Shown: one piece after another, positions 1 through 47,493 of the stretch | How the letters are laid out: each line of letters opens with the position of its first letter | Position numbering within the stretch: the stretch's first letter is position 1 | Assembly: GCA_963807635.1 (NCBI GenBank) | Contig: CAWEDJ010000022.1 | Location: forward strand, 1 to 64,000 | Length of the DNA stretch: 64,000 nucleotides | Reading direction: 5' to 3' | Source of the DNA: an uncultured cyanobacterium | Lineage (GTDB): Bacteria; Cyanobacteriota; Cyanobacteriia; Cyanobacteriales; Microcystaceae | Made by a program: the position numbers and the translations under genes | The notes under the pieces: model-generated | Told to the model about the DNA's origin: nothing | What the model saw: the letters and a program-made list of their open reading frames with translations, nothing else | Database searches by the model: none

Positions 1-1521
1 ATTCCAAATTCAGAATGTAGCTAAAGACAAAAAAAACTCAAGCTTTTTACTGGCAAGGGTTTTACCTTGAAGATTTCCAAGTAAGAAATTAAGAAGAATT
101 GGAAGCAGCAGGAGAAAGGGGGTCATCAAGCATAAAATCTAAAAGATGATGCCAGCTTTCAAAGAGTAGATATTTGGTTAAAGAAAGAAAGTCTTGGAAG
201 AATCCCTTACGAGTACAGCGTTGGACGCGAATCCTCTGGTAACGTTCATCAACCAAACCCAAAACCGTGTGGAAGAGAAAAGCCAGTAGATTGAGAGTGA
301 GCAAAACGGAGGCAAGGTGTTGTTTTCCATGCCCAAAATTATGTTCTAAATGATAGCCCCGATTTTTGAGAATATTGTGATTCTCATTCTCCGTGCGCCA
401 ACGAGTCCGTCCAGCACGACAGACATCAAGAACGACTTGAGGGGTGAGAAAATGGTTGGTAATCCAACTATTGTGATGGAGGAGTTGAGCATCGGATTCG
501 CGGTAGACTTTTAGTTCACACCAGTTAACCAACAAAGCAGGCTGTTGCTCTCGCAGGGGGATTTGATTGAGATAACGACATTGCCAAATCTCAAAATACT
601 TCCCATTCCAGCGTCGGTGTTGAGTAGTTTTGAGTTCCCCGTTGGCTTCTAAATAGGCTAACCACTCATAAAGTGTGGGATGAGAAGTCGGCAAACAGAC
701 GAAGATAAAGTTGAAGTCGTGGTCTAGACTATGCTGACAAGTCGGCTGACGACTGAACAAGTCATCCCCTAGTAGCGTTATCTTCTGCCATGCAAACAAA
801 CTGGCATGATTACTTATCCAGCGTTTTGCCGCATTTTGCTCGCAATCCTGTTTTTCCGACCCGTCTTGAGGAGTGATAAATTCAGGAGCTAAGGAGAAAA
901 CTGATTCATGGTCTGGGGAAACAATCACTGGTAATAATGCTTGATGAAAGTAGGTGACTTTTCCCTGTTTTGACGTTTTGGTTGAACAGCATGGACAATT
1001 GACTTTCCCTGAACTGTGATAATTTGTTCCATCCATCGCCACTAATAGATTTCCCCCCAATATCTCATAAGATTTTAGGAATCCCATGTTTCTCAATGCT
1101 TGGTAAATCAACCCAAACAATGGGAATAGACTGCTCGCTGTTATCCCATCCACAATATTACGAATCTGCTCTACTGTCGGTATTTTGTTTAGTCCAAACA
1201 AACTTTGAGCATTATCTCGCCCACAACGACTGTTGAGTTGACGTTGGTACTCTAAAAATGACTCATTTTGCGTAAAAAAGGCGGCAAATGCACCCAATAT
1301 CGCCTCTCTTAGACTATATTTCGTTGCGTTACTCGCTGAGCGCGGGTCATCTATTTTTGCGATAACCTCGTTTAAACACTCCATGATTCCATCAAAACTT
1401 AGGTCGGTTACTTTCATTTCACACTCTACAAAACCAGCAAAAGTTTCTCTTCTTGTTCATAGACCCCTAAATGCGAATACCATTCTGTTTTTGTTTATAC
1501 CATTTGAATTTGGAATTGCTG
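1..1521 (-). mobile_element. ISNCY-family insertion sequence (left end cut by window edge)
   Basis: Contains transposase 89..1417. Window start ATTCCAAATTCAGAATG is a near inverted repeat of CATTTGAATTTGGAATTGCTG at 1501-1521. Confidence 0.8.
89..1417 (-). CDS. ISNCY-family DDE transposase
   Basis: 442 aa; AMDGT, LGDDL and RWRTENE..LK DDE-type motifs; HNFGHG typical of cyanobacterial ISNCY transposases. Confidence 0.85.
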   Translation of the reverse strand: MKVTDLSFDGIMECLNEVIAKIDDPRSASNATKYSLREAILGAFAAFFTQNESFLEYQRQLNSRCGRDNAQSLFGLNKIPTVEQIRNIVDGITASSLFPLFGLIYQALRNMGFLKSYEILGGNLLVAMDGTNYHSSGKVNCPCCSTKTSKQGKVTYFHQALLPVIVSPDHESVFSLAPEFITPQDGSEKQDCEQNAAKRWISNHASLFAWQKITLLGDDLFSRQPTCQHSLDHDFNFIFVCLPTSHPTLYEWLAYLEANGELKTTQHRRWNGKYFEIWQCRYLNQIPLREQQPALLVNWCELKVYRESDAQLLHHNSWITNHFLTPQVVLDVCRAGRTRWRTENENHNILKNRGYHLEHNFGHGKQHLASVLLTLNLLAFLFHTVLGLVDERYQRIRVQRCTRKGFFQDFLSLTKYLLFESWHHLLDFMLDDPLSPAASNSS

Positions 1522-1538
1522 ATTGATGACACGCTCTA
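1522..1538. repeat. Terminal inverted repeat fragment of an IS5-family element
   Basis: ATTGATGACACGCTCTA is 16/17 identical to 20133-20149, the right end of the IS5 element in this window. Confidence 0.75.
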
Positions 1539-1542
1539 AATC

Positions 1543-2613
1543 TTAGGGATTTTCAGAGGATAGATCGGGATTATTCAATCGGTAATAATCCAACATTTCT
1601 TTGATAAATCCCGTGCAGGGAACAGCAATTAAAATGCCTAAAATTCCTGCAATCTTAACGCCCACAATCAAAGATAACAAAACCCAAACGGGATGGACTC
1701 CTGTGAATTTTCCGAGTAATCTGGGCGCGATCGCGTTTTCAATAAGTTGATCCACCACTGTTGCGATCGCTAATACCTTCACGCCTAACCAAAAACTGTT
1801 TAAACTGGCGAGTAAACTAATCACCAGAATACTCAAGCCGCCCCCAAAGGGAAAAAGAGCCATTACCCCAATAATTAATCCAAATAACAGACCAAAGGGA
1901 ACATTAAGCACAACAAACGACAGAATCATGCTAATTCCTAACCAACTAGCCACCGTGATCTGACCAATATAATAATTGTGAAAACTACGTCGTAAACCTT
2001 GTCGAATTGGGATTCTTAAAGAGAGGGGAAACCACCGAAAAATTCCATCCCAAAAACTTTCTCCTTTTAGTAATAAATAGACCGTAATAATCGTAATTAA
2101 ACCCGCTTCAAAAATCCCCCCTGCCGCTCCCAACATAAAAGTAATCACTTGCCCCGTCAACGCTTGCAATTGTTCGGGTAACTTCTCAGAAAATTTATTA
2201 GCAAATTGACTAAAATCGGTGGGTAATTTCCATCTTAATGACCAATCTTGTAAAATCTTCAATTGATGACTACCCGATTCTCCCCAACGCGGTAAAATCT
2301 GTAAAAGTTGGTTAATTTGTTCTGCTAAGACAGGAATCAGTAATAATGCCAAAATAGTAATGAATAAAAAAGCAGTGACTAACACTAAAATAACTGCGTG
2401 TAAGCGTTGAATACGGGGATGACGTTGTAACCAATAGACGGGATATCCCAAGATAAAGGCTAAAAGATTAGCAATAATAAAAATGCGAATAGGAGATTGA
2501 AAATAATCTAAAATCAGCATTAAGACCCAACCGTTGAGGGCAATAATCGGTAAGGCCATTCCCCAACATAAATAACGAAAAACTTGAGGCGGTAGGGGGT
2601 TAAATTTCATCAT
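1543..2613 (-). CDS. AI-2E family (PerM-like) transporter
   Basis: 356 aa multi-TM protein with ENAIAPRLLG..TGVHP..LSL..G..GILG...AVP signature. Confidence 0.85.
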   Translation of the reverse strand: MMKFNPLPPQVFRYLCWGMALPIIALNGWVLMLILDYFQSPIRIFIIANLLAFILGYPVYWLQRHPRIQRLHAVILVLVTAFLFITILALLLIPVLAEQINQLLQILPRWGESGSHQLKILQDWSLRWKLPTDFSQFANKFSEKLPEQLQALTGQVITFMLGAAGGIFEAGLITIITVYLLLKGESFWDGIFRWFPLSLRIPIRQGLRRSFHNYYIGQITVASWLGISMILSFVVLNVPFGLLFGLIIGVMALFPFGGGLSILVISLLASLNSFWLGVKVLAIATVVDQLIENAIAPRLLGKFTGVHPVWVLLSLIVGVKIAGILGILIAVPCTGFIKEMLDYYRLNNPDLSSENP

Positions 2614-2784
2614 TAATTTGTTGGCATTGATTTTAGCTTGAGTCTTGATGATTAATTTTAATGATTTTAGTTAAGCAAGATTTTATAAACAATACGCAAT
2701 TGGATGAGATATCGGTAAGAGGTTTAAATTTTTTATTTCCAAACATCGGACAGAACATCAATATCCCTATGAGCAATTTAAAGA

Positions 2785-3735
2785 TTATTTTGCGGCAAAC
2801 TGGCGTTTTAATTCGTATCCTCCTAGACATAAACTCGCTAAAATCAGAGGAATCCAATAATAAATGACTCGATAAGCAAGCAGAGATCCTAACAGTTGAA
2901 TCGAAGGAATGGTAGAGGATAGGGTTAAAAGAATCACCGTTTCAAATACGCCCAATCCTCCTGGGATATTACTGATAATTCCTGCGATCTGTGCCAAGAG
3001 ATAAATTCCAAAAAATCCTGCATAGGAAAGGGAAAGACTAGGGGGTAATAAAACGTATAGAACGGCGGCGGCGAGACCCCAATCGATCGCGGTGACTGCG
3101 ATTTGAGTAAGGGATAGTTTAAAGGGTAAATGGGGAAGTTTCCAACGACCAATTTGTAGGGTTTTATGGGTGAATAAACTGAGAGCTAAATAGGCAACAA
3201 TAATGATTAAAAAAATCAATCCCAGGGGATGAACGGAAGAAAAAGGTAACTTGAGAACCTTGGGAACTTGTAATGGTTCAACTAGAAAAGTAACCCCTCC
3301 GACTGCCAATAGACCCAACCAAAAACTGAGATTACAAAAGGCAATAATACTGGCAATTTGTCGATTAGAGAGTCCCCAATGGGCATAGAAGCGATAACGG
3401 ATGGCACTACCACTTAAAAGGGCGAGTCCGACGCTATTACTAATGGCATAACTCATAAAACCGACAAAGGCTGTTTTTCGATAATCGAGTGATCCCTGGA
3501 TATAAATCATTGCCAGGGTGTCATAACTCGTCAGCATCACATAATTAACCAGCATTAGGGCGATCGCGGTGAGTAAATGCTGATCAGAAATCGCCTTTAG
3601 ACTTGCGAGGATATCTTGGGGGCTATATTTTGCCAATTCTTGATGAATGGCCCAAATTGAAAGGATAAACAGAATTAATCCCACTAAGGACGGGGCTAGT
3701 TGTTGAATCCATTTCCCATACTCATGTTTTTTCAT
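2785..3735 (-). CDS. Lysylphosphatidylglycerol synthase (MprF-type) transmembrane/flippase domain protein
   Basis: [22 protein letters not shown] and LLAYR..YY motifs; no C-terminal synthase domain; ATG at 3735 overlaps the queF 3' end. Confidence 0.8.
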
Positions 3736-4153
3736 GTTGGACTTCGACGACCATGTGGACATTGCCCCTCGGATTAAAATCGGCCCGAATTTTCACAAAA
3801 AGCGGATCACAAGCGGCAATAAACTCATCCAAAATGACGTTAACGACTTCTTCGTGGGAAATATAGCGATCGCGGAAAGAATTGGCGTAAAGTTTGAGGG
3901 CTTTGAGTTCGACCACTTTTTCGTTGGGACAATAGTTAATATAAAAAGTCGCAAAATCGGGATACCCTGAAAAAGGACACTTACAGGTAAATTCAGGTAA
4001 GGTAATCTGGACATCGTAACGCCTACCTGGGCTGGGATTGGGAAAGGTAATTAATTGTCCTGCTTCAATAATGCGTTCCCCATATTTAATCGATTCTGGG
4101 GTATTTTCGGGTTTTTCAGAGAGTATGGTGTCGGATTGGGATACTTGACTCAT
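3722..4153 (-). CDS. queF: preQ1 synthase (7-cyano-7-deazaguanine reductase)
   Basis: [29 protein letters not shown] and FNPRGN motifs. Confidence 0.95.
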
Positions 4154-4521
4154 GGATTTGATCAAAAAGTTCTAGGGTTATTTATAGTAACGATTATCGC
4201 AAAGGACGAGACCTTACTGGGAAAATTGGGTTAGCGAGTTCACCGCTATGCAAAAACGGGAACAAATTCGATTTGTCACAGTCAGCCTACAAACATAGAT
4301 ACGAGTATTAACAATCAAACGCGATCGCGCTTCAGAGACGGGCAAAAAAATTCGTAAAGTCATTTAAGACAAAGCTAACGTCCCATCCCCCAATTAATTT
4401 CCCACAAAATCACCCTGCACCCCTCTTTTTAGAATTACCATATTTAGTGTCTTAGTTCTACAATAAGACGACCCACACACTAGATTTAGTGCTTGCACTA
4501 TCTCGAAAGGATCATACTCCG

Positions 4522-7500
4522 ATGAATTATTTACAGGAATGGCAGCAAAGCTGTGTTGATGAACAGCTAATCCGCCTTAATGTAACTTGCCTGGCGGGAG
4601 AATCTCCCTCAGAACACCTACTCTATGCCGACACTCTACCCCGACGCAATGATGGGCGAGTCAGTAACGCGATTCTTGACCGCTATGAACATATTGAAGC
4701 GGGCGGCTGGTGGTGTTCAGGAATTGATTTATTAACGGGAGAATTGGATCTTTGGGGCTGTTTTAAGCCTGATTCCCCCCGAACTCATCCCCAAAAGGGA
4801 AAAATCATTAAATATGAACATCCTCCCCAGGCTCCGACGGGTTTGTTTGCTCTTCGAGTACCTTTGCAACTGTGGGAACGCATTGCTGAACGGGCAGGGA
4901 TTGCGATCGCCGAAGCCCAGATCGATCCAGAGCAACCTGATTTGGGCTTTTGGCAATGGTTGATGAATCATCCCCACGTGCCTTTGTGTATTACGGAAGG
5001 GGCTAAAAAAGCAGGAGCCTTGTTGTCCGCAGGATACGCCGCGATCGCCTTACCAGGAGTTCACAACGGTTATCGAACCCCGAAAGATGAAACAGGAAAA
5101 CGCATTGGCCATTCCCATTTAATCCCGCCCCTCAAAAAATTGGCCAATCCGCAACGAGAAATCTATATTGCCTTTGACCAGGACAGTAAACCCAAAGCCG
5201 TCGAATCGGTCAATAGTGCCATTAAACGCTTGGGTTATCTTTTTCAAAAAGCAGATTGTAAAGTCAAAATCATTACCTGGGACAATCAATTCGGCAAAGG
5301 CGTAGATGATTTTATTGCCGAAAAAGGGGAAGAGATCTTTACCGAAGCCTATCAAACCGCTCTGCCTTTTGATATTTGGAAAGCCCAGGGTTTAAGCCAA
5401 CTCACTTATCCCGCCGCTCTAAGAAGTCCATGCGCGCTATCTGCCGAATTTAGAAATTGCCGAAAACGCCCAACTCGTCGGCATCAAATCCGCTAAGGGA
5501 ACAGGCAAAACCCAGTTTATCCAAACTCTCGTCGCTCAAGCATTGGCTAAACATCAACCCGTTTTAGTGATTGGCCATCGGGTCAGATTAGTGGAAGAAC
5601 TGTGTTTGCGCTTTGGTTTACCCTACATTACGGAAGTTCGCGAGCATCCCCTCGGCCAAGTGTTGGGTTATGGATTGTGCATTGATTCCTTGCATCCCAA
5701 TTCCCAGGCGAAATTTGATCCTGAACAATGGTCAGATAGTCTCGTGATTATGGATGAAGTGGAGCAGGTTCTCTGGCATACCTTAAATTCCGATACCTGT
5801 CGTCATCAGAGGGTTTCGATTCTTAAATCCTTAAAATCCCTATTACAAAATGTCCTCAGTGGCGGTGGTCGGGTCGTCGTTGCCGATGCCGATCTGAGCG
5901 ATATTTCCCTGGATTATTTAATCGCCCTATCGGGAATTCCCCTTAATCCTTTTATTATTCAAAATCAATGGAAACCGCAGGAAAAAGAAGCCTGGACGGT
6001 TTATCATTACCCTGAAAATGACCCGAAACGCCTAGTTAAAAATCTGGTTAAACATATTAAAGAAGGTGGCAAACCCTTTGTTTGTTTATCGGCTCAAAAA
6101 ATCAGTAGTTCCTGGGGAACCTTAAACCTAGAATCCTATCTGAAAAATCAATTTCCCGATACCAAAATTTTGCGAATTGATGCCGAATCCCTTGCCGAAC
6201 CGAGTCACGCGGCCTATGGTTGCATGGCAAATTTGGATCAGGTTTTAGCAAATTATGATGTGGTGCTGGCGAGTCCTTCCATTGAAACGGGGGTGAGTAT
6301 TGACCTCAAGGATCATTTCACTTCGGTTTGGTGTATTGCCCAGGGCATTCAAACAGCGACTTCGGTTTGTCAGGCATTAGGACGAATTCGCGCAAATATT
6401 CCCCGTCATATCTGGGTTGCGGGTTATAGCTTTAACCAGGTCGGTAATGGTTCGACCTCGATCACGTCCCTGTTGACTTCTGGGCATCGTTTAACGGAAT
6501 TAAATATTCGTCTTCTGCAAAAATCCGATTTAGAAAATTTAGATGATCTCGATACAGGATTTCAGGCAGAATCTTTGCTGTGTTGGGCAAAAATGGCAGT
6601 ACGGGTCAATGCTTCTATGTTGCACTATCGGGATTCGGTTTTAGCTCTATTACAACAGGATAATCATCGTCTAGAATTAAAAATTCCCAAGGCCCCTCTC
6701 AAAACCGTTGCGGAAAATCAAGTCAGTCTCGCGGCTCAAAATCAACTGACGGACGCGATTCAAGAAGCCCGTGAACAAAATTATCAGGCCGAATGCCAGG
6801 CGATCGCCCTTTCCCCTAAACTCAGTGACCAGAAATATCAAAAACTGAAGAAAAGACTGGTTAAAAATGTGCAAGAGCGGCGGACTCTGCGGAAACATGA
6901 ACTCAAACAACGCTACGGTATTGAAATAACTCCAGAATTAGTCGTTTTAGATGACCAGGGCTGGTATCAGAAGTTAAGGTTACATTACTTTTTAACCGTC
7001 GGTCGTCATTATCTGGCTGATCGCGACACCAAATTTGCCAAAAATCTGATCGAACAAGGTCATGGCAGTTTGTTTCTCCCCGATTTCAATGGTTCCCAAT
7101 TAGGGGCAATTATCGGCACAATGGAGATTTTAGGGATTCCTGTGTTACTGGCCGATCCCCAGCGAGAACTTTGTCCCCAGGACGATGATTTACTGGCTCT
7201 CGCTCAAATTGCTATTCAAAATCGAGCCGATATTAAAACCGTTGTGGGCATTGGGATTGCCCATAATGCCAGCCCGATCACGATTATTCGCCGTTTTCTA
7301 GATTTAGTTGGCTATGATTTGCAGGTCTTAAAATCTAAACGAATCGGGAAAAAACAGGTCAGAATTTATCAAATTATTGTTCCCAGTGATGGTCGAGAAG
7401 CTGTCTTTCAACAATGGTTAATCCGCGATCGCGCTTTGCCTGGTAGTTCGGAGGGTTGGTTTGATGAATATTGCCTTAAGCTAAAATCTTCTGGGCAAAA

Positions 7501-7552
7501 TCACAAATCTGATGATGATCCCTATCTGCAATTGAGTTTAGATTTGGCTTGA
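4522..7552 (+). CDS. CyRepA1-family replication protein (DUF3854 primase-like + helicase-like domain); one frameshift near 5420
   Basis: ORF 4489..5496 has ITEGAKKA, IAFDQD and KGVDD (TOPRIM-like). In the shifted frame GIKSAKGTGKT (Walker A, ~5480-5512) leads into ORF 5543..7552 with VIMDEVEQV and SPSIETGVS. Confidence 0.8.
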
Positions 7553-8053
7553 AGAACAAAAAATGCAGCGATCGCCCTTTATTCCCAAAATTTTCAAAGA
7601 AATTAAAAATAAACCCCGAATGCTTTTGGAAATTCATGAAAAATCCTTGAAAGAGAATATTTTTAAAATTTCTCCAAAAACTTTTAGGCAATTAATCCAA
7701 TTTATACAATTAAACCTTTGCCTATACAGAATTTCAAACATTGCTTTGTCAGGCTGGGAAAAAACAATTAACCATTTAGAAAAATTGAGGAATAGTTCTC
7801 TGAAAAATCAAAGCGATCGCTAAAAATCTTGACTGGATTACCGAATGAAGTAATTAGCAATGTTCACAGCAAGCTCCCTATGGTATAAGCCCAGGATTTA
7901 GGACAAATAACCTGAAACCCAAGCTCACCATCCCCAAGGACTTGAAAGAAAAAGCTAATACCCTTGATGACCTCCTCGACCACATTCTGCCTAAAAACTC
8001 CTCAGACAACTCGTATTAACACTGATTTTGTAAACTTTTGGAACAAACCAATC

Positions 8054-8762
8054 ATGAAAATTACTTTTTGCCTAGCAGTGGGTTTAGTTACAGGTATAAT
8101 GCTACCCCTGATCTAATGCGTCTGAGAATCAGGTTCCTCAAACACCAGCAGTAGCCATCAATTCTCTTCAAATCTCTCCCCAATCTTCTCCGACAGGTTT
8201 CAATGAACGACTGAGTGATACCAGTAATGCGTCTGAAACTGTGAGTGGATCTGGGAAATCTACTGAAACGCTGAGTGATACCAGCAAGCCTTCTGTCAGT
8301 AAACCGTCTGTAACAGGAAGTGAATCCAGTCAGTCTCCCAACACGGTGAGCGATTCGTCTGATGGATCTACTAACACCGATTCAACACCAATCAAGAAAC
8401 CTAGCTCAGAATCCGTGACCCCAGACACAACTGAGGACAACACAGAAACTCCAATGACAACCAGTCCTACCCCTAAGACGGATGCTTCGGACTCTAAAAA
8501 CACCTCGACGGAAACAACCACCCCGCCAATGGGTACGTCAAGTCCAATGGGACAGATGAACAACATAAACGGTTCGCCTGCGGTCATTAAGGATGGTCAG
8601 ATGCCCCAAAAGCCTGATGCTCCTTCTAGTTCGTCCAAACCCACTTCACCCAACACAACTCCTACGACAACAACTTCACCGACCACAACTTCACCAAACA
8701 CAACTCCTAAGACAAATAAAACGACAAAAACAGTCCCAAGTGTTAAGACTGGTGAGTGGTAA
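8054..8762 (+). CDS. Secreted Ser/Thr/Pro-rich low-complexity protein; frameshift near 8111
   Basis: ATG 8054 encodes signal-peptide-like MKITFCLAVGLVTGIMLPL. The +1 frame is open from 8112 into ORF 8241..8762. Internal repeats LSDTS x2 and TSPNTTP x2. Confidence 0.6.
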
Positions 8763-8854
8763 TTGAAGCAGTTATTCTCTATCTGCAAACAATTTTCGAT
8801 TTTTCGGTTCAGGTGAATTCTTAATCTGAATTTCCCCTAACCCTGGTTTTTTCT

Positions 8855-8888
8855 AGAGGCGTACTGAAAAGGGTGCGTCTCTTTTTTT
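8855..8888 (+). terminator. Rho-independent terminator
   Basis: AGAGGCGTACT...GGTGCGTCTCT stem followed by a T-run. Confidence 0.6.
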
Positions 8889-8964
8889 ATAGACCCGTCT
8901 GCTAGGATAGGATTTGGTGACCGAGGGAATTCCTCAAATACTAGCTAAATCTCTATTTTTAAAG

Positions 8965-10157
8965 ATGAAACGTCAACTATTACCCTATCTTTTTAACCGC
9001 TATATTATTGCTTTTTTCTTCAGCTTTACGCTAATTTTTGGAGGATTATTTAACTTTTCTGCGATCGCAGCCCCTATTCCTGCTGTAACCCCTGAGCCTG
9101 CCCTAGCTCAAATTCCTATCCCCCAAAATAATCAGGAAAGTTTTGTCGCAAAAGCCGTAGCACGGACGGGGCGGCAGTGGTTCGCATCGATACAGAAACC
9201 GTCGTCACTCGGCGCAATGACCCGTTATTGAACGATCCTTTTTTTAGAGACTTTTTTGGTGGTCAATTTCCCATCAATCAGCCCCAAGAACAACGAATCG
9301 TGGGTCAGGGTTCGGGTTTTATTATTGACGGAACTGGGGTCGTTTTGACCAATGCCCATGTTGTGGATAATGCCAATAAGGTGACGGTAACGCTCAAGGA
9401 TGGTCGCACCTTTAAAGGGGAAGTGAAAGGGGTAGATGAGGTGACCGATCTAGCGGTGGTGAAAATTGATGCCCAGGGTTCGGCTTTACCCGTTGCACCG
9501 TTGGGGGATTCTTCCCAGGTACAAGTGGGAGATTGGGCGATCGCGGTGGGCAATCCTGTGGGGTTGGATAATACGGTCACCTTAGGGATTATTAGTACCC
9601 TGGGGCGATCGGCGGCTAAAGTCGGTATTCCTGATAAGCGAGTGGAATTTATCCAAACCGATGCGGCGATTAATCCAGGGAATTCGGGCGGGCCATTATT
9701 AAATTCCCATGGAGAAGTGGTGGGTATTAATACCGCTATTCGGGCCGATGCGATGGGTATTGGTTTTGCGATTCCCATTAATCAAGCAAAATCCTTAGAA
9801 AGTTTATTAGCTTCGGGTCAAAAGGTTCCCCATCCCTACATTGGTATTCAAATGGTCAATCTGACGGCAGATTTGGCTAAACAAAATAATCGTGATCCCA
9901 ATTCGCCGTTTTTGATTGCCGAAGTGGACGGAATTTTAGTGGTTCGAGTCATTCCGAATACCCCCGCAGAACGGGCAGGAATTCGTCGGGGTGATGTGAT
10001 TACTGCGGTTAATAATCAACCTATTCAGGACGGGGGCGAATTACAATCGATTGTCGATAAAACGGGACTGAATAAATCCCTAAAGCTTAAACTCCAACGA
10101 GGCGATCGCAGTTTAGAATTGACGGTGCAAACGGCCCAATTAGAGAGTGCCTCCTAA
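8965..10157 (+). CDS. hhoA: HtrA/DegP-family serine protease with PDZ domain; frameshift near 9170
   Basis: [18 protein letters not shown] and [14 protein letters not shown] triad motifs plus C-terminal PDZ; N-terminal signal/TM segment lies in ORF 8914..9231. Confidence 0.85.
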
Positions 10158-10268
10158 ACGGCAGAAGGGAGCAGAGGAGAGCGATCTCAGGTTTGAACTG
10201 GGAGGCCATGCCTCTGCTCTGGCGATCGCGGTTTGGATTAAAGTAAGGGGAATTGAAAGGGTCTTCCT

Positions 10269-11051
10269 ATGCGAACGGATACTATTTTTTATCAGTTGTT
10301 TCAGATTATGCCGAATCTTCTCAGTGAGTTGTTAGGCAGAGAGGAGGAGAAGTATCAATTTCAATCGGTGGAAATTAAGGAGTTATCGCGACGAATTGAT
10401 GGAGTCTTTTTGCCTGTGGGGGAAGATGCTAATCAACCCATTTATTTTGCGGAAGTGCAATTCCAGGGGGATGAACGACTCTATGAGCGGTTGCTCACGG
10501 AAACGTTTTTGTATTTGGGGCAGTATCGTCCTGAACGTCCCTGGTTATGTGTGGCGTTATGGGCAAGGCGTGGTATTGAAACTCCTATTCCCCGTCATTA
10601 TGAGGCGTTAGCGGAGGCAGGATTACTGAAAGTGCTATATCTGGAGGAGTTGGGGATAGGGTCGTTGGGTAAATCGGTCTTGCAGTTGGTGACGATCGCG
10701 GATGGATTGGTGCCTGGGGCGGTGGAACGGGTGGTGAGTGAGGTGAGGGCGTTAAGAGATGAAAGTTTTCAGCGACAGGTTATAGAATTGGTGGAGAGGA
10801 TGTTAGTTTATCGTTTTCCTGATTTTTCTAGGGAGGTTTTACAGGCTATGTTTACGGATGCTGATCTAAAAAAGACGCGCTTTTATCGTGAGGTTTTTCA
10901 AGAGGGACTTGAGGAAGGTCGTCAGGAGGGTCTTCGAGAGAGTCGGCGGCAGTTGATTGTGCGGTTACGGCAACGGGGTTTTTCTCAGCAGGAGGTGATG
11001 GAGATGTTGGATTTGTCTTTGGAGCAGGTAACGGAGTTATGGGATAAGTAG
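10269..11051 (+). CDS. Rpn family recombination-promoting nuclease / putative transposase (DUF2887-like)
   Basis: MRTDTIFYQLF start, RRIDGVF...FAEVQF PD-(D/E)XK core, C-terminal QEGLEEGRQEG repeats. Confidence 0.85.
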   Translation: MRTDTIFYQLFQIMPNLLSELLGREEEKYQFQSVEIKELSRRIDGVFLPVGEDANQPIYFAEVQFQGDERLYERLLTETFLYLGQYRPERPWLCVALWARRGIETPIPRHYEALAEAGLLKVLYLEELGIGSLGKSVLQLVTIADGLVPGAVERVVSEVRALRDESFQRQVIELVERMLVYRFPDFSREVLQAMFTDADLKKTRFYREVFQEGLEEGRQEGLRESRRQLIVRLRQRGFSQQEVMEMLDLSLEQVTELWDK

Positions 11052-11223
11052 GCGATCGCGTTTGGTCAGGATTGATGAAAATTAAACGTTAAATAGTTAG
11101 CTGATGGGCGTTCTAGGGTTGGCGGGGTGTTGGTCTGGTTTACGATGAGCGGGGGGAGTGGGCAATTTTAGGCGATCGTGTCATGATCGTGGTGTGGCCT
11201 CAATTATTAAAGAGAGGTGAGTT

Positions 11224-11358
11224 ATGAAAGGTAAACATCCGAAGATGGAAATTCCGTCCCATGAGGGTAAGTTTCCTAAGATCATGATGCTCCACCCACA
11301 AACGAGTTTTCGGCATCAAAGTCGTGGGGGGCAACAAGGCAGAAACAGACCTCGTTAA
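11224..11358 (+). CDS. Small basic protein, 44 aa (MKGKHPKMEIPSHEGKFPKIMMLHPQTSFRHQSRGGQQGRNRPR)
   Basis: Intact ATG..TAA frame directly after a strong SD (AGAGAGGTGA, 11211-11220); below the ORF-track cutoff. Confidence 0.55.
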   Translation: MKGKHPKMEIPSHEGKFPKIMMLHPQTSFRHQSRGGQQGRNRPR

Positions 11359-11547
11359 GGTTTGATTTTTTCGTTAAAAATTGGCGATCGCTTTTTTCAA
11401 TCTAGGAGAAGGCGATCGCTTTTGGTTAGGGTTTTGGATTTTGGGCGATCGCGATTACAGATTTTTTGAGTTGGTAACAAAATTTTGTCATCTGTTTGTT
11501 GAAAAAGGGTAAAATTCAACAATGCTCGTTTAAGGTGACTCAATTTA

Positions 11548-13113
11548 ATGGCAAAGGCAACTAAAACAAAAAGTATTGAAGAAACGCTCTGGGATTCGGC
11601 GAATAAGTTACGCGAAACGGTGGAGTCGGCGGAGTATAAGCACGTTGTTTTGGGGTTGATTTTTCTTAAATTTGTCAGTGATAAGTTTGAGGAGCGCAGA
11701 TCGGAGTTGCTCGCGGAGGGGAAGGAAAAATATATTGAGATGGTGGAATTTTACACGATGAAAAATGTGTTTTATTTGCCTGAAATTTCCCGTTGGGCTT
11801 TTTTAATCGAAAATGCAAAACAGGATGATCTGGCTCTCAAGGTAGATACGGCTTTGGCTACGGTCGAGAAAAATAATCCTTCGTTAAAGGGTGCTTTACC
11901 TGATAATTATTATTCGCGTTTGAATTTGGATGTGAGTAAGTTGGCTTCGTTGTTGGATACTATCAACAATATTGATACTTTGAAGGATAAGCAACAGGAT
12001 ATTGTGGGGCGGGTTTATGAGTATTTTCTGAGTAAGTTTGCGTTGGCTGAGGGGAAGGGAAAAGGTGAGTTTTATACACCGAAAAGTATTGTTAATTTGA
12101 TTGCAGAAATGATCGAGCCATACAAGGGCAAAATTTATGATCCTGCCTGTGGTTCGGGGGGAATGTTTGTGCAGTCTATTAAGTTTATCGAAAGTCATCA
12201 CGGGAATCAAAAGGATGTTTCGATTTACGGTCAGGAATATACGGCGACAACGTACAAACTGGCTAAGATGAATTTGGCGATTCGGGGGATTTCTGCGAAT
12301 TTGGGGGAGGTTCCAGAAAATACGTTTATGAAGGATCAGCACAAGGATTTGAAGGCGGATTATATTATGGCGAATCCTCCTTTTAATCAGAAGCAATGGC
12401 GATCGGATAATGAGTTAGTGGATGATCCGCGTTGGAGTGGTTATGATGTGCCGCCGACGGGGAATGCGAATTATGCTTGGATTTTGAATATGGTGTCGAA
12501 GTTGTCGGAAAATGGGGTGGCGGGTTTTATTTTGGCGAATGGGGCTTTGTCGGGTGGGGGAACGGAATATAATATTCGCAGGAAGTTGATTGAAAATGAT
12601 TTAGTGGAAGCGATTTTAGTATTTCCCAGTTCTATGTTTTACACGACTGACATAGGAGTTTCCTTTTGGATTATTAATAAAAATAAAAAATCACGAGTGA
12701 CTGAAATTAATGGCAATATTAAAAAATATCGTGATCGTCAAAAAGAAATTTTATTTATGGATTTAAGACAGATTGGTATTCCTTTTGAAAAGAAGTTTGT
12801 CCAGTTTTCAGTTGATGCAGTCAAAAAGATAACGGATACCTATCACAATTGGCAAAAAATTGGTTTTGAAAAAACATATCAAAATATTCCAGAATTTTGT
12901 TATAGCGCAAAATTTGAAGAAATTAAAGACAAGGATTTTTCCCTAGTTCCGAGTAAGTATATTGAGTTTATTAATCGGGATGAAAATATTGATTTTGATG
13001 AAAAAATGCAGGCTTTGCAAGCTGAGTTTGCGAAGTTATTGAGGGCTGAAGAACAGTCTAAGCAAGATTTATTAACTGTGTTTAAGGAGTTGGGTTATGA
13101 GATCAAATTATAA
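11548..13113 (+). CDS. hsdM: Type I restriction-modification methyltransferase subunit
   Basis: GEFYTP, YDPACGSGG (SAM binding) and NPPF (N6-adenine MTase). Confidence 0.95.
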   Translation: MAKATKTKSIEETLWDSANKLRETVESAEYKHVVLGLIFLKFVSDKFEERRSELLAEGKEKYIEMVEFYTMKNVFYLPEISRWAFLIENAKQDDLALKVDTALATVEKNNPSLKGALPDNYYSRLNLDVSKLASLLDTINNIDTLKDKQQDIVGRVYEYFLSKFALAEGKGKGEFYTPKSIVNLIAEMIEPYKGKIYDPACGSGGMFVQSIKFIESHHGNQKDVSIYGQEYTATTYKLAKMNLAIRGISANLGEVPENTFMKDQHKDLKADYIMANPPFNQKQWRSDNELVDDPRWSGYDVPPTGNANYAWILNMVSKLSENGVAGFILANGALSGGGTEYNIRRKLIENDLVEAILVFPSSMFYTTDIGVSFWIINKNKKSRVTEINGNIKKYRDRQKEILFMDLRQIGIPFEKKFVQFSVDAVKKITDTYHNWQKIGFEKTYQNIPEFCYSAKFEEIKDKDFSLVPSKYIEFINRDENIDFDEKMQALQAEFAKLLRAEEQSKQDLLTVFKELGYEIKL

Positions 13114-31755: not shown

Positions 31756-31889
31756 GGAGGTGTAAGGTTACGTTTAAATTGCGCTTAAATTGCGTTGAGA
31801 TAAAATTTTCAGCGATTCGGTTAGCGTTCGATTTTTGCTAATGCAGACTTAAAACCGCGCCTAAATTGAAACCCTTAGTTTTGAAGCTC

Positions 31890-31973
31890 GCCCCCTAAAT
31901 CCCCCAATTCTGGGGGACTTTGAACTCAGAAAGGTTATAAACTCTCCCCCCAAAGTTGGGGGGCTGGGGGGGC
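31890..31973. repeat. Paired C-rich/G-rich palindromic intergenic repeat
   Basis: CCCCCTAAATCCCCCAATTCTGGGGGACTTT...CCCCCCAAAGTTGGGGGGCTGGGGGGG; a second copy lies at 63443-63511. Confidence 0.75.
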
Positions 31974-32084
31974 AAAAAACTTTAGTTCTCAAACTAGAGG
32001 GGGTTTAGGATGGATTTTTTAATCGCGATCGCCATTTTTAGGATAATCTAAAACACTGGAATTATTCGTAATCTTTGATGCGAT

Positions 32085-36515: not shown

Positions 36516-37481
36516 GTGGAGATTACTTTTTTAGGAACGAGTTCTGGTGTGCCGACGCGATCGCGGAAATGTCTCCAGCATAGCCCTCAGACTCCCCCAA
36601 CGGGCCGAAGTCTGGTTATTCGACTGTGGAGAAGGAACCCAACACCAACTTCTTCGTAGTCATGTCAAAAGTTCCCAACTTACCCGTATTTTTATCACCC
36701 ATCTCCACGGGGATCATATTTTCGGTTTAATGGGACTGCTGCCAGTTGTGGACTCGCGGGGACGGGGCAAGATGTAAATATCTATGGGCCATCGGGCTTG
36801 GCGGACTATCTCAAAGCCTGTGCTAAATATTCCTACACCAATCTTTCCCAAGGCGTAAAAGTTCATACGATCCAGGAATCAGGATTGGTTTATGAAAACG
36901 AAGAATTTCAAGTCCACTGTGAGTTGCTAAAACATCGCGTTCCCGCCTACGGTTATCGTATTTCAGAAAAAGACCGCCCTGGTAGATTTAATGTGGAAAA
37001 GGCGATCGCGTTGGGTATTCCTTCTGGGCCGCTCTATGGCAAACTCAAACGGGGTGAAACGGTTACACTTCCCGACGGTCAACGCATTCAGGGAACAGAT
37101 TTGTGTGAACCCACTGAAACGGGTCGAAAATTTGCCTACTGCACTGATACGGTTTTTTGTGAATCGGCGATTAATTTGGCCCAGGACGTTGATGTTTTAA
37201 TTCACGAAGCGACTTTTGCTCATCAAGATGCCCAATTAGCCTTTGATCGCCTGCATTCCACTTCAACCATGGCCGCCCAAGTTGCTCTAGCGGCTCAAAG
37301 CAAACAGTTGATCATGACCCACTTCAGCCCCCGCTATGCTCCAGGGAATGCTCTACAACTAGATAATTTACTCACAGAAGCTAGGGCGATTTTTCCGCAA
37401 ACCATGCTGGCCTACGATTTTTTAACCTACGAAATTCCCCGCCGCCAATCGGTTGAATCTCCTAATCTCGTTTTATCGTAA
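36516..37481 (+). CDS. rnz: Ribonuclease Z; frameshifts near 36566 and 36741
   Basis: GTG start gives [36 protein letters not shown] and THFSPRY. Confidence 0.93.
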
Positions 37482-39502: not shown

Positions 39503-40639
39503 TTAGAGATTGGCATTAATTCCTACGGCTTGGGAGATATGAGTCAAATTATGGTCTGTTAACCTATTTCCTAATCCTTGTAAAACGTCCTTGACCATCC
39601 AAGGGCCTTGGTAAATCCAGCCTGTATAAACTTGTAGTAAACTCGCTCCTGCGGTGATTTTTTCCCAGGCATCTTCCGCCGTAAAAATGCCCCCAATACC
39701 AATAATAGGAATACTACCCTGGGTTTGTTGATAAATAAAACGGATGATTTCCGTAGAACGTTGACGTAGGGGCATCCCACTCAGTCCTCCCGCTTCTTCT
39801 TGGATTTTATTGCCTGTTTTGGGTAGAATTTGCGTTTTTAATCCTTCTCGTTGAATCGTCGTATTAGTCGCCACAATGCCTGATAGTTGATAGGTTTTGG
39901 CGAGATCAATGATCGTCCTAATCGCGACTTCATCTAGATCGGGAGAAATTTTAATGAGTAATCTTTTTTCTCCTTGATTGACTGACTGTAACCCCTTCAG
40001 GATTTTTTTGAGTTCCTCCGATCCTTGCAGCGATCGCAATCCAGGCGTATTAGGCGAACTCACATTAATCACAAAATAATCGGCTAGGTCTTTTAAATAC
40101 TGAAAACTGCCGATATAATCTTCAGCGGCGGCTTCTAGGGGAGTAATCTTGGATTTAATCAGGTTTATGCCAATGGGAATCGAGCGACGATGATTATGCC
40201 AGGTTTCCTGCAAGGTTTTCGCCATCACCTCTGCGCCCAGATTATTCCCACCCAGACGATTTAAGACCGCTTGATCCAACGGCAAACGAAATAAACGCGG
40301 TTGGGGATTTCCTACTTGAGCATGAAGCGTTACGCCCCCTAGTTCAGCGAATCCGAATCCTAAATCGGGCCAAATCGCGGCGGCTTCTGCATCTTTATCA
40401 CAGCCCGCAGATAATCCTAAAATATTGGGAAAATTTAACCCCCAAATGTCTTGGGAAAGTCTTTGATCGTTTTGGCAAAAAGAGTGCGCTAATTGATCCA
40501 GAATCCATTGTCCCCGACCCTCTCGACTGAGGCGATCAAAACCTTGGAGCGTCTTGATCATTTGGCGATGACCCCATTCGGGATTGGATTGAGTGGCGGC
40601 TAAAACGAGGGGATAAAAAGGCTTGGCAAAGGTGAACAT
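39503..40639 (-). CDS. pyrD: Quinone-dependent dihydroorotate dehydrogenase
   Basis: [36 protein letters not shown] and GGLSG. Confidence 0.95.
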
Positions 40640-40690
40640 TTTAAAAGTAGAAATTACGGCTTGTTCGATAAATGAATGAGTAATAGATCT

Positions 40691-41353
40691 TTATCTCCAA
40701 GGTAAAACAGGAGGCGGAGCATGGGAATGTTTTTCAGGCTGATTTAGTCCAGGTAACCAAACTCTCAATCTTTGCCAAATATGGATAAAAGTCGTTATCA
40801 CGCCAAACATCTGACTTATTGATATATCTTCTGCTAAGTTGTCATAGAATTGGTAATTGAGTTGATCTTGAATCTCTTCACATTTCTGTCTAATTTTTTC
40901 TAATAAATCTTGAACTTCTGCTTGAGTTTGTGCTTGAGGAAAGTTTTCATAAATTAATAAAAAAGTATCCGCAAATAATTGCAATGAGAATGGTTCATCA
41001 ACATAACAGTTTATTGCATCTGAATATCCCCACCAAATTCCTCCCTGTTTTGCGACACTTTCTCCTAATTCTACGGCGGTATGACAAGCAAAAATATAAG
41101 CACTTCGTTTCTCTAAAATGAAAGCATCGTCAATAGATAATGCAATTTGACTATCTTGAGCGCGTAAGATATTAGTGTCACCATGTGACATTGCAAAAAG
41201 AGGTGAGTCAGTATTCTTCAAAAAATCCAATAAATTATCTCTAGTTGCCTGTTTTTCAAGGAGAATAACAAAATTAGAGGGGAATTTGAAGGTTTGAGCA
41301 AGATTAAAATTAGATTGAGTCGCTTCATCGTAAGCAGGCACAAAAACAATCAT
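40691..41353 (-). CDS. Putative caspase-fold (clan CD) cysteine protease
   Basis: LLEKQATRDNLL, FAMSHG (His) and IFACHTA (Cys) in caspase/CHAT/gingipain order and spacing; ATG overlaps the upstream TGA. Confidence 0.6.
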   Translation of the reverse strand: MIVFVPAYDEATQSNFNLAQTFKFPSNFVILLEKQATRDNLLDFLKNTDSPLFAMSHGDTNILRAQDSQIALSIDDAFILEKRSAYIFACHTAVELGESVAKQGGIWWGYSDAINCYVDEPFSLQLFADTFLLIYENFPQAQTQAEVQDLLEKIRQKCEEIQDQLNYQFYDNLAEDISISQMFGVITTFIHIWQRLRVWLPGLNQPEKHSHAPPPVLPWR

Positions 41354-42122
41354 TGATTATTTCTCCTTTTGGCCATACTTTTGAGAAAATCTCTTGATAC
41401 TCTTAAGACATCTGAAGCATATTGAAGACCAATTTCTGAACCTGATTCTATTTCATGAGAGATTTCTTCAGCAGTTAAAGTTCTTCCTTGGGATGTTTTC
41501 CAAAGGACAGTATCTGATGGTACAACTTCATTAACTAAACCAGCAAAAACTTTTAGATTAATATTAGAAGCTACATCTTCTTTCTGTATTAAAAGCTTAT
41601 TAATACCTTCAATAAAATCTTTTAAAGAGGAAGAAGATTTCATTGCTTCATCAATATTGATATGTTTTAAAAAGTCCCATTCGGAATATTTTTCACCAAA
41701 TATCACTTTCGCGATCGCTTTATTTTTATTGTCCGAAATTTCATCTGGGGCAGGCAAGTCTTCGATTAATTTTTTTCCCCAGTCCGACTTGACATATTTT
41801 ATCGCAGTTTTTTTATCTGCAAATAACCAAGAAGTAACATCAGGAACTGCATAAAATAAGGTTATAAAAGAATTAAATTGATTATCGATTTTTGATTTTA
41901 GATCAGAGTCACAAAATTTTTCCAGATCAACACTAACCAGTACAGCATAATTTTTTGCTATATTTTGGCCAGATTATTGACAAATTTAATAATATTTTGT
42001 CTCCCTCTCATTGGTGTTACAACAATCTGCTCAGAAGAGATTTTCGCCGCCTGAAAAATCCACTGAATCAATTGGGCATCAGCAGAGTTTTCAACTAACA
42101 AAGTAAGATAGTTATTAGACAT
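41350..42122 (-). CDS. DUF4276/TOPRIM-like protein with extra C-terminal domain; frameshift near 41970
   Basis: Reconstructed ~257 aa from ATG 42122: LLVENSAD, VSVDLE, AVPDVTSWLFAD and SSSLKDF resemble the DUF4276 VEG.D / D.D / E.E.WLLAD / SPSF motifs. Confidence 0.55.
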
Positions 42123-42194
42123 CGTTTTTCATATTGAAACAACTAGAATTTTAACTAATTTGATTAATTTTGGCTTGTCTAACCATACCAAACC

Positions 42195-45625: not shown

Positions 45626-47493
45626 ATGACTGATCATTTTCAATTAGCAGAAGAGTTTTTTAAGCAAGGGGAATTTGAGAAGGCTTGCGAAGAATATGAA
45701 CAAGCTATCCTCCTTCAATCGGATCATGTGGAAGCTTACATCAGCTGGGGAGATGCGTTATTTAATCTCAAGAACTATGAAGAAGCAATCACTAAATATA
45801 AAGAGGTAATAAAACTTAATCTCGATTATGTTGCTGAAGCTTACAACAGACTGGGGAGATGCGTTATTTAATCTCAAGAACTATGAAGAAGCAATTACTA
45901 AATATCAAGAGGTAATAAAACTTAATCTCGATTATGTTGCTGAAGCTTACAACAGACTGGGGAGATGCGTTATTTAATCTCAATGAATATGAAGAGGCAA
46001 TTAAAAAATATAATCAAGCTCTAGACAAGAATTCTGATCACTTTCTTTCTTCTTATAATATTGCTCTTGTTTATTGGAGGCAAGGTGCTTATAAAGATGC
46101 ACGAAAAAGGTGGAATTCTGCGGCTGAAATTTATGAGGGTTTACAATCCAAAGCAGAACAGGATAAAAATGCCGATCATTTCTTTATTTATGGCAGTATA
46201 CTTGAAGATTTAAACGAATTGGATCGAGCCGAAAATATATATAAAAAAGGACTAGAAATTGATCCCAATAATATAGATATTTTGACAAGGTTAGTCGATT
46301 TTTATCTTGATAAAAAAGAGCAAGAAGTGGATGATTCTTCTCCGTCCTGTTTGGTTAAAGCTAGACAATATTATCTTAAAGCTCGTAATTGTTTGAAAGA
46401 TGAACTTAATAAATTAGAAGATACAACGACTCTACTCACACTAGCTAAACTTCACCTTAGTATGGATGAGTATCAAGAAGCTGAAAGTTACCTTTTAAAA
46501 GCCCTTGAAAAAGAGAGTGATGTTGCAGATATTTATACCAGTTTAGGAACCCTATCTATTAGGAAAGAAAGCTTTAGAGACGCGACTGATTATTTTAAAA
46601 AAGCTCTTAAAATCGCGCCATACGATCTCGATATTTGGAGTAAACTTGCTGAAGCTTATCTAAAACTCAAACAACTTTCACAGGCAGAAAGTGAGTATCG
46701 TAAAATCTTAGGTATTGCTCCCTGTCACGTCGAATCTCACATCGGACTAGGGGAAGTTTATGTTGAAATGGGAGATGAAGGAGAATCAGATCTTTATAGT
46801 CAAGCCATTAAGCATTTTGATAAAGCAATTAAAATTAGTAATCAACGAGAAGGATCTAAGATTCTTAATAAGAAAGAATTATCTGGAATTTACTATTTAA
46901 GAGGTTACGCAAGAGTGAAAATTTATGAAAATTCTGTAGGAATAAAAGATAGCTATTTATTATTAGAAGCACAGGGAGATTTTGCAAAATGTATTGATAA
47001 AGATCCTGAAAATAATAAAGGAATCACAGCACATAAAAAAGTTGAAAAACAGATGGAAATTCAAACAATCCAAAGCTTTACCACTATTTTCGGTTCAGGA
47101 ATTATATGGTTTTCATCAATCCTTATTTTAGGGATAACTAATCTAGTCTTTTGGCAACCTTTTTTAAGCAATAATCAGAATAATAAAGTATCAGTTTCTC
47201 AACCATCACCACAAGCAATACAAACACCAAAACCAAACGCATCTCCCAACTCGAAAAACTCTACGCAATCTCAAACAAAGATCGGTGTAAATAAAACATC
47301 AGAACCCAATAGAATTAATACAACAGAATATTTTCTATTAACTTTCGGTTCATTAACCTTTAGTCTGATCAGCTTATATCTGCCTCAACTTTTGAAACTT
47401 AAAATTGGAGGCACAGGTATAGAAATTGAAAAAAGTTCTATTGATCAAATCAAAACATCCCAAATTCCAACCTCTTTGGGAATTAAAAAATAA
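45626..47493 (+). CDS. TPR-repeat protein with two C-terminal TM helices; two frameshifts inside a tandem duplication
   Basis: Multiple TPR motifs in ORFs 45626..45871 and 45934..47493; low GC; C-terminal hydrophobic helices and LKIGG..IE motif. Confidence 0.75.
45745..45982 (+). repeat. Near-identical 106-bp tandem duplication of one TPR unit
   Basis: CTGGGGAGATGCGTTATTTAATCTCAA recurs at 45745, 45851 and 45957. Confidence 0.9.

Follow-up and report, generated by a model that had tools for sequence, protein, structure and literature searches.

A two-gene cassette and its protein families

In the 64,000-nucleotide stretch of DNA analyzed here (the window; positions 1 to 64,000 of contig CAWEDJ010000022.1 from an uncultured cyanobacterium of the family Microcystaceae, assembly GCA_963807635.1), two minus-strand genes make up a cassette that lies between an M48-like gene on one side and a pyrD-like gene on the other (here and below, flanking genes are named from their translations unless a family scan is cited). 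Gene A (41350..42122), recognized by profile and fold matches, encodes a protein of 257 amino acids (aa), if intact, with a predicted OLD-type, DUF4276-like TOPRIM fold; in the window, it is read in two pieces. Gene B (40691..41353), delineated by its open reading frame (ORF), alignment, and predicted fold, encodes a putative stand-alone clan-CD cysteine protease of 220 aa. The stop codon of gene A and the start codon of gene B overlap by 4 nucleotides (nt), ATGA (41350..41353, minus strand), an arrangement that suggests translational coupling and that recurs in the L001 allele, which is 98% identical and comes from a Merismopediaceae metagenome-assembled genome, the nearest named relative of the window among the loci compared. 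The pair had been noticed in an initial annotation made from the letters of the window, and both the overlap and the short motifs described there are in place, with LLVENSAD in the 54-aa piece of gene A, VSVDLE, AVPDVTSWLFAD, and SSSLKDF in its 206-aa piece, all on the minus strand, and QATRDNLL, SHG, and ACHT in the 220-aa ORF of gene B. The cassette is a real, conserved two-gene module, apparently undescribed, that combines a caspase-fold protease of an unannotated family with an ATPase-less OLD-type TOPRIM protein carrying a new C-terminal tail.

The AlphaFold2 model of the gene B protein (predicted local distance difference test score, pLDDT, 96; predicted template modeling score, pTM, 0.92) leads to clan CD in both structure comparisons. 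In the Foldseek search, the TPR-CHAT protein of Craspase is the best match (E 6.6e-4), caspases, SAVED-CHAT, legumain, and gingipain are found as well, and nearly all of the matches listed belong to clan CD. In the VIA comparison, SAVED-CHAT (Z 10.7, root-mean-square deviation [rmsd] 3.6 over 156 aligned residues) is joined by DdvA (Z 10.3), gingipain Kgp (9.8), separase (9.7), and metacaspase (9.7), and the first rows recognizable by title as lying outside clan CD appear near Z 6.5. Among 142 homologues of at least 190 aa (shorter ones were dropped), His57, Gly58, and Cys90 are invariant, and Asp9, Thr12, and Ala89 are conserved in 141, 138, and 133 sequences, respectively. In the model, His57-Gly58 follow strand 3 (residues 52-55) and Ala89-Cys90 follow strand 4 (84-88); the dyad was assigned from its motif and its place relative to the strands, not by superposing residues on a known dyad. 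A three-helix insertion spans residues 121-194, and an accessory sensor domain is absent. Because the fold matches of the model and the invariant His and Cys coincide, we assign gene B to clan CD, as a predicted minimal protease with the caspase/CHAT/gingipain fold; an intact dyad is, as noted for caspase homologues, no proof of proteolytic activity (PMC5756287).

The family to which this putative protease belongs is large and lacks a name in the resources searched. A profile search recovered 642 representatives at E<=0.001, of which 199 are retained at 1e-10, with members in Thermoanaerobaculia and Halomonadaceae among others, and the 150 representatives listed (113-238 aa) give no sign of fused domains. 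Gene B has no match in NCBIfam, PADLOC, or PHROGs, so that, as the initial annotation supposed, it falls in no system named in PADLOC, and no meaningful match in Pfam, where the cut-offs for CHAT, Peptidase C14, and C25 are reached by none of the 142 members (the single CHAT match is at E 0.044). In the ESM Atlas, the protease falls into unnamed clusters, for which the nearest named one, CHAT at 0.87, is a lead only. To judge by its position and conservation, Asp9 might make the S1 pocket acidic, and an acidic pocket would predict cleavage after Arg or Lys; non-metazoan C14 caspase homologues are described as cleaving after basic residues via such a pocket (PMC5756287).

The gene A protein was modeled from the intact allele (pLDDT 92.7). 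In the VIA comparison, its closest matches are the OLD nucleases of Burkholderia (6nk8; Z 11.6, rmsd 3.6 over 169 aligned residues) and Thermus (6p74; Z 10.2), followed by PH0156 and AriB (both Z 8.0), GajA (7.7), and the retron proteins Eco2 and Eco8 (6.9 and 6.8), all of these matches spanning residues ~1-187; the six best Foldseek rows are likewise all OLD, if weak (best E 1.1e-3). The model thus places residues ~1-180 in the OLD-type fold, that is, TOPRIM plus a helical subdomain, and the remainder forms the extra C-terminal domain that the initial annotation had proposed. Sequence profiles point in the same direction with weak scores: the 21 homologues scanned match HEC-01B in all cases (best E 4.5e-12), DUF4276 in 18, and OLD-like_TOPRIM in 7, a weak match to the mad4 profile is found among the homologues, gene A itself scores 18.1 bits against Pfam DUF4276 (below the cut-off of 30.2), and in the ESM Atlas it belongs to a DUF4276/OLD-like cluster. 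There is also a weak PADLOC match to GajB (E 1.8e-6, 4 of the 21 members); the predicted fold of gene A is not that of a helicase. Homologues with a named source come from Snowella, Coleofasciculus, Corallococcus, a Myxococcales bacterium, Sphingomonas, and Novosphingobium.

The putative active site is largely conserved across the family and partly eroded in the lineage of the window. In BpOLD, the two metal ions are held by E400, E404, D455, D457, T506, and E508, with K562 as the catalytic lysine (PMC6755086), and the E11, D15, D64, D66, and E97 positions of gene A reproduce the spacing of E400, E404, D455, D457, and E508, a correspondence drawn from spacing and secondary structure rather than from residue-level superposition. 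In the homologues, these and nearby positions are occupied by E11 (49/52), D15 (44/52), D64 (49/56), D or E66 (56/56), D or E72 (56/56), E or D97 (51/56), and D103 (56/56); the candidates for the equivalent of K562 are K or R133 (52/56) and R163 (52/56). The window allele retains E11, D15, D66, D72, and D103 and carries S64 and T97 where the family has D and E/D; in other cyanobacterial copies, N64, H15, or K11 occurs. The partial degeneracy of the acidic residues stated in the initial annotation therefore holds for the window lineage and the cyanobacteria and does not extend to the family, in which the set is largely intact among 56 homologues; because most non-cyanobacterial sequences retain the full set, the degeneracy is lineage-specific. 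With its nuclease site partly degenerate, the local copy may have a weakened version of the predicted nuclease. In BpOLD, single mutations were tolerated, whereas combined mutations abolished processive cleavage, and RNase M5 has the same active-site layout as OLD (PMC6755086).

The C-terminal domain of gene A (41350..41565, minus strand; residues ~186-257, ~70 residues), delimited by the secondary structure of the model and by column entropy, is the most conserved part of the protein, with a mean column entropy of 1.32 over residues 190-253 compared to 2.10 over residues 1-180. In the full-length model, it is predicted to consist of a helix, a beta-hairpin, a helix, and a long helix. The tail belongs to no recognized family, and there was no match to it in the PDB or PHROGs, no match in phages, and no convincing match in plasmids; the viral structure search had no match at E<=0.001. 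In general, sequence searches of the PDB for the cassette returned only helical or designed-protein noise. No tail on its own was found among 301 genomes of the phylum, and in the genome of the window, the tail profile matches the cassette only.

Linkage, distribution, and genomic neighborhood

With the protease as the query, gene A was found directly upstream of it at all 4 genome loci and at each of the 19 metagenome loci where the upstream DNA could be read; a twentieth metagenome locus begins inside the protease gene (the set includes two pairs of duplicates, L027/L028 and L044/L045). Of 22 loci examined, 17 have a 4-nt and 3 a 1-nt overlap of stop and start, 20 in all; gaps of 9 and 13 nt separate the two genes at the remaining loci. 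Six further pairs can be proposed because protease and TOPRIM records share the size of their longest contig (96237, 36495, 7360, 5579, 2477, and 2172); five of these matches emerged among 20 proteases looked up and one from an earlier search, non-matches being uninformative because the TOPRIM search was word-limited, and the six pairs occupy congruent places on both trees. The trees of the two genes are near-congruent, and their pairwise identities are correlated (Spearman 0.87, n=22, permutation p 0.0005, with kin that are not independent). Nine of 10 comparisons give a ratio of nonsynonymous to synonymous substitution rates (dN/dS) of 0.11-0.29, which indicates purifying selection on the pair; the remaining value, 0.51, is based on 3 differences. 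In the sampled loci, the linkage of the two genes looks obligate. Thus, the fold match of the protease, its conserved His and Cys, the co-occurrence of the two genes elsewhere, and the lack of a match to a named system all came out as the initial annotation had anticipated.

The pair is rare even among relatives. In 401 genomes of the order, the TOPRIM and protease profiles match 8 genomes each, the genome of the window included, with the tandem pair present in 7 and any piece of it in 9. Two of the pieces are remnants: a decayed TOPRIM gene alone in G560 (L057:1477-1890) and, in G647 (L068:2552-2863), the product of a deletion that joins part of the TOPRIM gene, in frame, to the segment of the protease running from His to Cys. 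An even sample of 401 genomes across the phylum yielded the genome of the window and one weak, unrelated-looking match (G217, a 551-aa ORF, E 7.7e-4).

Proteins of the DUF4276 type usually pair with an ABC or AAA ATPase, and the observation in the initial annotation that the operon lacks one extends beyond the window. Neither protein of the pair has an ATPase domain; among 26 loci, many of them with short flanks, an ABC-ATPase profile detected an adjacent ATPase once, and the 9 loci whose flanks extend ~1 kb or more in both directions have none nearby. At the single positive locus (L038:987-2915), a pair with a frameshifted protease is followed immediately downstream by two HEC-01A-like ABC ATPase genes in tandem. 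The host genome (G000) itself contains three ABC ATPase-DUF4276 pairs, on contigs C65, C63, and C62 (L047-L049), and a fourth TOPRIM-like match at C41:54019-54600. In a GC-rich clade (L030, L031, L033, and L035), a convergent gene for an extracytoplasmic function (ECF) sigma factor, identified by Pfam matches for L031, L033, and L035, is located 3' of the protease, probably at one shared chromosomal site.

The insertion site and the integrity of the sequence

Comparison with a genome that has an empty site, G218, delimits the variable cassette at 40631..42189 (no strand assigned): G218, whose flanks are 97% identical on both sides, has in place of this interval a spacer of 115 bp, unrelated in sequence, that separates the M48-like gene from the first codons of pyrD. 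The two states are related by replacement and not by insertion with target duplication. The cassette is, accordingly, patchy, being present or absent between 97%-identical relatives; in five genomes of the same genus, it occupies the same site in G403 and a different one in G404, and three have no match. The spacer at the empty site (L009) contains a short perfect palindrome of the repetitive extragenic palindromic (REP)-like kind. Sequencing run X1 holds contigs with the cassette together with a loose end that matches the beginning of the empty-site spacer, and further spacer variants occur at the M48-pyrD junction in runs X1 and X17, so that the gap between these two genes is a variable site.

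The cassette is AT-rich, as the initial annotation had it, with a GC content of 0.332 compared to 0.409 for the genome, a value equally low in 4.7% of 5466 genome windows of the same size. The direct repeat with 11 of 13 matching positions that was reported to flank the pair exists (40652..40664 on the plus strand; second copy at 42166-42178), but it does not qualify as a mark of mobility and no functional part can be ascribed to it: matches of at least 11/13 were reached by 55 of 1000 shuffles and by 95 of 1000 random AT-rich genome pairs, and both copies are missing from the empty site of G218, so the repeat was rejected as a target-site duplication. A scan for promoters and terminators produced only chance-level signal. 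In RNA run X17, there are contigs over parts of both genes, which carry no information on level or strand, with DNA carry-over uncontrolled, and which are not used as evidence here. Elsewhere in the window, at ~31853-32010, lies a 90-160 bp element with dozens of copies in G218 and G403, probably a miniature inverted-repeat transposable element or a REP-type repeat.

In the window, gene A is split by a 1-bp deletion at ~41966 into a 5' piece of 54 aa (41958-42122) and a 3' piece of 206 aa. Repair of this frameshift was predicted to yield a protein of ~257 aa, and the L001 allele, with one extra base at ~41966, indeed encodes an intact protein of that length; the extra base is also present in contigs from 3 of 3 DNA runs examined, from two studies. 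Between positions 20000 and 39500, the window has six other private 1-bp indels (20761, 23266, 25016, 33002, 36569, and 36742), with G218 and G403 agreeing against it at each. The indels at 36569 and 36742 break the RNase Z gene (36547-37481), which is intact in 4 of 4 relatives. Because all three runs hold the extra base and six further private indels are found, the frameshift in gene A is probably an assembly error rather than a natural mutation. The idea that it is a natural knock-out, proving a lone protease to be harmless, was accordingly dropped, in view of the six private indels that the assembly has elsewhere within 19.5 kb, two in the RNase Z gene, and programmed frameshifting need not be invoked, as close alleles are intact. 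With an assembly so prone to indels, other findings of pseudogenes or frameshifts in this genome are to be doubted. An AT-rich gene with TPR repeats at 45626-47493, read in two ORFs (81 aa and 519 aa), possibly reflects the same type of error; this gene is missing from the corresponding end of L001, as far as the sequence of L001 reached.

A possible protease-gated TOPRIM nuclease

The cassette resembles several known systems in its parts. With OLD of classes 1-3, GajA of Gabija, AriA/AriB of PARIS, HEC-01, Mad4 of MADS, and the DUF4276 effectors of Menshen, it shares the predicted TOPRIM plus helical-subdomain fold and, to judge by spacing and for most of the family, the acidic constellation; unlike the ABC ATPase-TOPRIM systems, it has no ABC ATPase domain or partner gene, its partner is a putative protease, and it carries the extra conserved tail of ~70 residues. 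Gene B resembles Csx29 (the TPR-CHAT protein of Craspase), SAVED-CHAT, the type IV Thoeris caspase, and DdvA in its predicted fold and in the motif of its His/Cys dyad, and differs from them in that its family is only 200-240 aa long, with no accessory domain and 8-16% identity. All four of these carry or depend on sensor modules (TPR, SAVED, or a TIR signal). In reduced-genome bacteria and archaea, there are presumably also two-gene modules that pair a short tail-like protein with a small caspase-like protein.

The closest precedent in logic is Canu (KaeCanABC), a caspase-activated nuclease defense described by Tuck et al. (PMC12799240), in which, as in the cassette, the gene for a caspase-family protease stands beside a nuclease gene and the proposed logic is that of a protease-activated nuclease. 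The components differ: according to the same source, the Canu nuclease is a gated DNase of the metallo-beta-lactamase fold encoded downstream, whereas the cassette has a predicted TOPRIM fold encoded upstream, and Canu has a MALT1-like caspase with Ig/TPR domains and a third gene, whereas the cassette consists of two genes with a bare protease of 220 aa. The word toprim does not occur in the main text on Canu (PMC12799240). In Microcystis, the orthocaspase MaOC1 is encoded beside a type II toxin-antitoxin module and is reported to cleave the product of the neighboring gene (PMC7935541); it offers another cyanobacterial caspase homologue with an adjacent partner gene, but MaOC1 is an enzyme of the C14 p20 type whose neighbor is a separate toxin-antitoxin module of two genes, whereas the cassette has one TOPRIM-fold partner and a protease without a C14 match. 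No description of a TOPRIM-caspase pair was found in the literature searched, and large candidate tables in supplements, which lay outside that search, may hold the pair unnamed; the comparison also took in portions of PMC13069673, PMC12065111, PMC10568477, PMC12839542, and bioRxiv 10.1101/2024.10.26.620412. The cassette is a member of neither Canu nor the OLD, Gabija, PARIS, and HEC-01 systems; most likely, it would work like Canu.

The interpretation that we tentatively favor, as one that may quite possibly hold, is that the cassette encodes a protease-gated OLD-type TOPRIM nuclease that would cause cell arrest, with Canu-like logic, another nuclease, and no sensor domain. The minimal caspase-fold protease would control the TOPRIM nuclease, replacing the ABC ATPase of OLD, Gabija, PARIS, and HEC-01. 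The two proteins would form a complex via the conserved C-terminal domain of gene A; upon phage infection or a related stress, the protease would become active, and the tail would be cut or released; the freed nuclease would then degrade DNA or cut RNA, leading to the arrest or death of the infected cell. A broader proposition, which we regard as possible if somewhat doubtful, is that the pair is the founding member of a multi-phylum immune or cell-death system of two genes, so far undescribed. Its TOPRIM nuclease would have exchanged the usual ABC-ATPase controller for a minimal caspase without a sensor, from a new clan-CD family, and the new tail of ~70 residues would serve as a portable caspase-docking or gating module. 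If true, bacteria would have invented caspase-activated nuclease immunity a second time, independently and in its smallest possible form.

Several observations weigh against the proposed gating of a nuclease by the protease. The cyanobacterial TOPRIM domains are degenerate at one to several acidic positions and yet evolve at the low dN/dS given above, a combination that would fit a non-catalytic role of gene A. The linker before the tail contains no invariant candidate cut site, R190 being present in 48 of 56 homologues and missing in the window lineage, and the protease has no sensor domain that would account for a trigger. HEC-01, the nearest PADLOC family of the TOPRIM protein, gave no defense in its one reported test (bioRxiv 10.1101/2024.01.29.577857). 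Defense, binding, cleavage, and nuclease activity are all predictions from folds and gene linkage; the co-divergence of the two genes is partly expected from shared ancestry alone, and the sampled loci are biased toward close relatives of the query motifs and cover few of the 642 protease representatives.

The genomic surroundings do little to strengthen a defense role. The initial annotation had suggested a check for enrichment in defense islands, and the outcome is weak. Seven distinct insertion sites have flanks on the kilobase scale (window/L001, L002, L003/L004, L027/L060, L059, L040, and L044), and one of them is a clear defense island, in a small sample weighted toward cyanobacteria and short contigs; the short contig of L038 with its HEC-01A-like ATPases can be added. 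PADLOC was applied to 46 proteins and Pfam to 36, and the flanks of L059-L061 were judged by eye. The clear island is in L044, a marine metagenome contig in which the pair lies between a gene for a 1675-aa STAND-like protein (2-5029; Avs4, E 2e-11) and Tiamat TmtA (7203-12594; E 0). The five cyanobacterial sites are mostly among housekeeping genes, some with Uma2 or small toxin-antitoxin-like genes near, and no copies were found in the phage, plasmid, and viral-contig collections searched. With island support this weak, a role in conflict is argued from the domain content, the patchiness, the swapping of the cassette, and its repeated decay.

The strongest alternative, which is unlikely but deserves serious attention, reverses the roles of the two proteins: the protease would be the effector and the TOPRIM-tail protein its inhibitor and sensor, by the logic of a toxin-antitoxin or of securin and separase, such that the tail blocks the protease, the TOPRIM part senses a nucleic acid or a phage protein, and release leads to cutting of a host target. 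The tail being the most conserved region of gene A is consistent with this arrangement, as is the contrast between the invariant protease dyad and the cyanobacterial acidic residues that decay under purifying selection. Antitoxin genes are usually upstream and translationally coupled, and gene A is both. Furthermore, with the window frameshift probably an artifact, there is no sign that a lone protease is tolerated, and the protease is damaged in every broken copy seen outside the window (truncated in L002, frameshifted in L038 and L046, and reduced to remnants in L057 and L068), as would fit a toxic gene that is lost first. However, the breaks in L038 and L046 may themselves be assembly errors, the retention of the full acidic set in most non-cyanobacterial sequences is hard to explain for a pure inhibitor, and the tolerance of BpOLD to single substitutions (PMC6755086) implies that partial degeneracy need not mean a dead enzyme.

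It is improbable that the cassette has no anti-phage role and is instead a stress or housekeeping module, for example, an RNA-processing nuclease similar to RNase M5 or a DNA-repair nuclease, with a dedicated protease for its regulation or turnover. Such a role would accord with insertion sites mostly among housekeeping genes, with the lack of copies in the collections of mobile elements, and with the active-site layout common to OLD and RNase M5 (PMC6755086). It is hard to reconcile with the very patchy spread of the cassette, in the order as well as between close relatives, and the variation of insertion sites by genus, the low GC content, and the recurrence of decayed copies would be typical of accessory conflict genes. 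Finally, control of the TOPRIM protein in trans by an ABC ATPase of the HEC-01 or PARIS type, with the protease as an add-on, seems very improbable: the HEC-01B matches of all homologues scanned, the two ATPase genes right downstream in L038, and the at least three ABC ATPase-DUF4276 pairs elsewhere in the genome of the window would suit it, but an adjacent ATPase is confined to that one locus and is not seen where flanks are long, the three host-genome ATPases examined each adjoin their own TOPRIM gene, and the tail profile matches the cassette alone in this genome.

Whichever partner acts on the other, the pair stands apart from the systems with which it was compared. In that literature, control of the OLD-type TOPRIM immune nucleases falls to ABC ATPases or to retron parts, and bacterial immune caspases usually have a large sensor module; the pair of ~220 and 257 residues has neither sensor nor ATPase. 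The cassette defines a clan-CD protease family, predicted from its models and alignments, that is missed by current family libraries, along with a conserved domain without a family match. If the proposed mechanism is true, it would amount to a different way of gating a TOPRIM nuclease, and the cassette, very small and easy to clone, would serve as a model of how a protease of the caspase fold can be kept inactive and then activated in the absence of a sensor domain. Its spread across distant bacteria makes the pair look like a candidate protease-controlled switch for defense or cell arrest.

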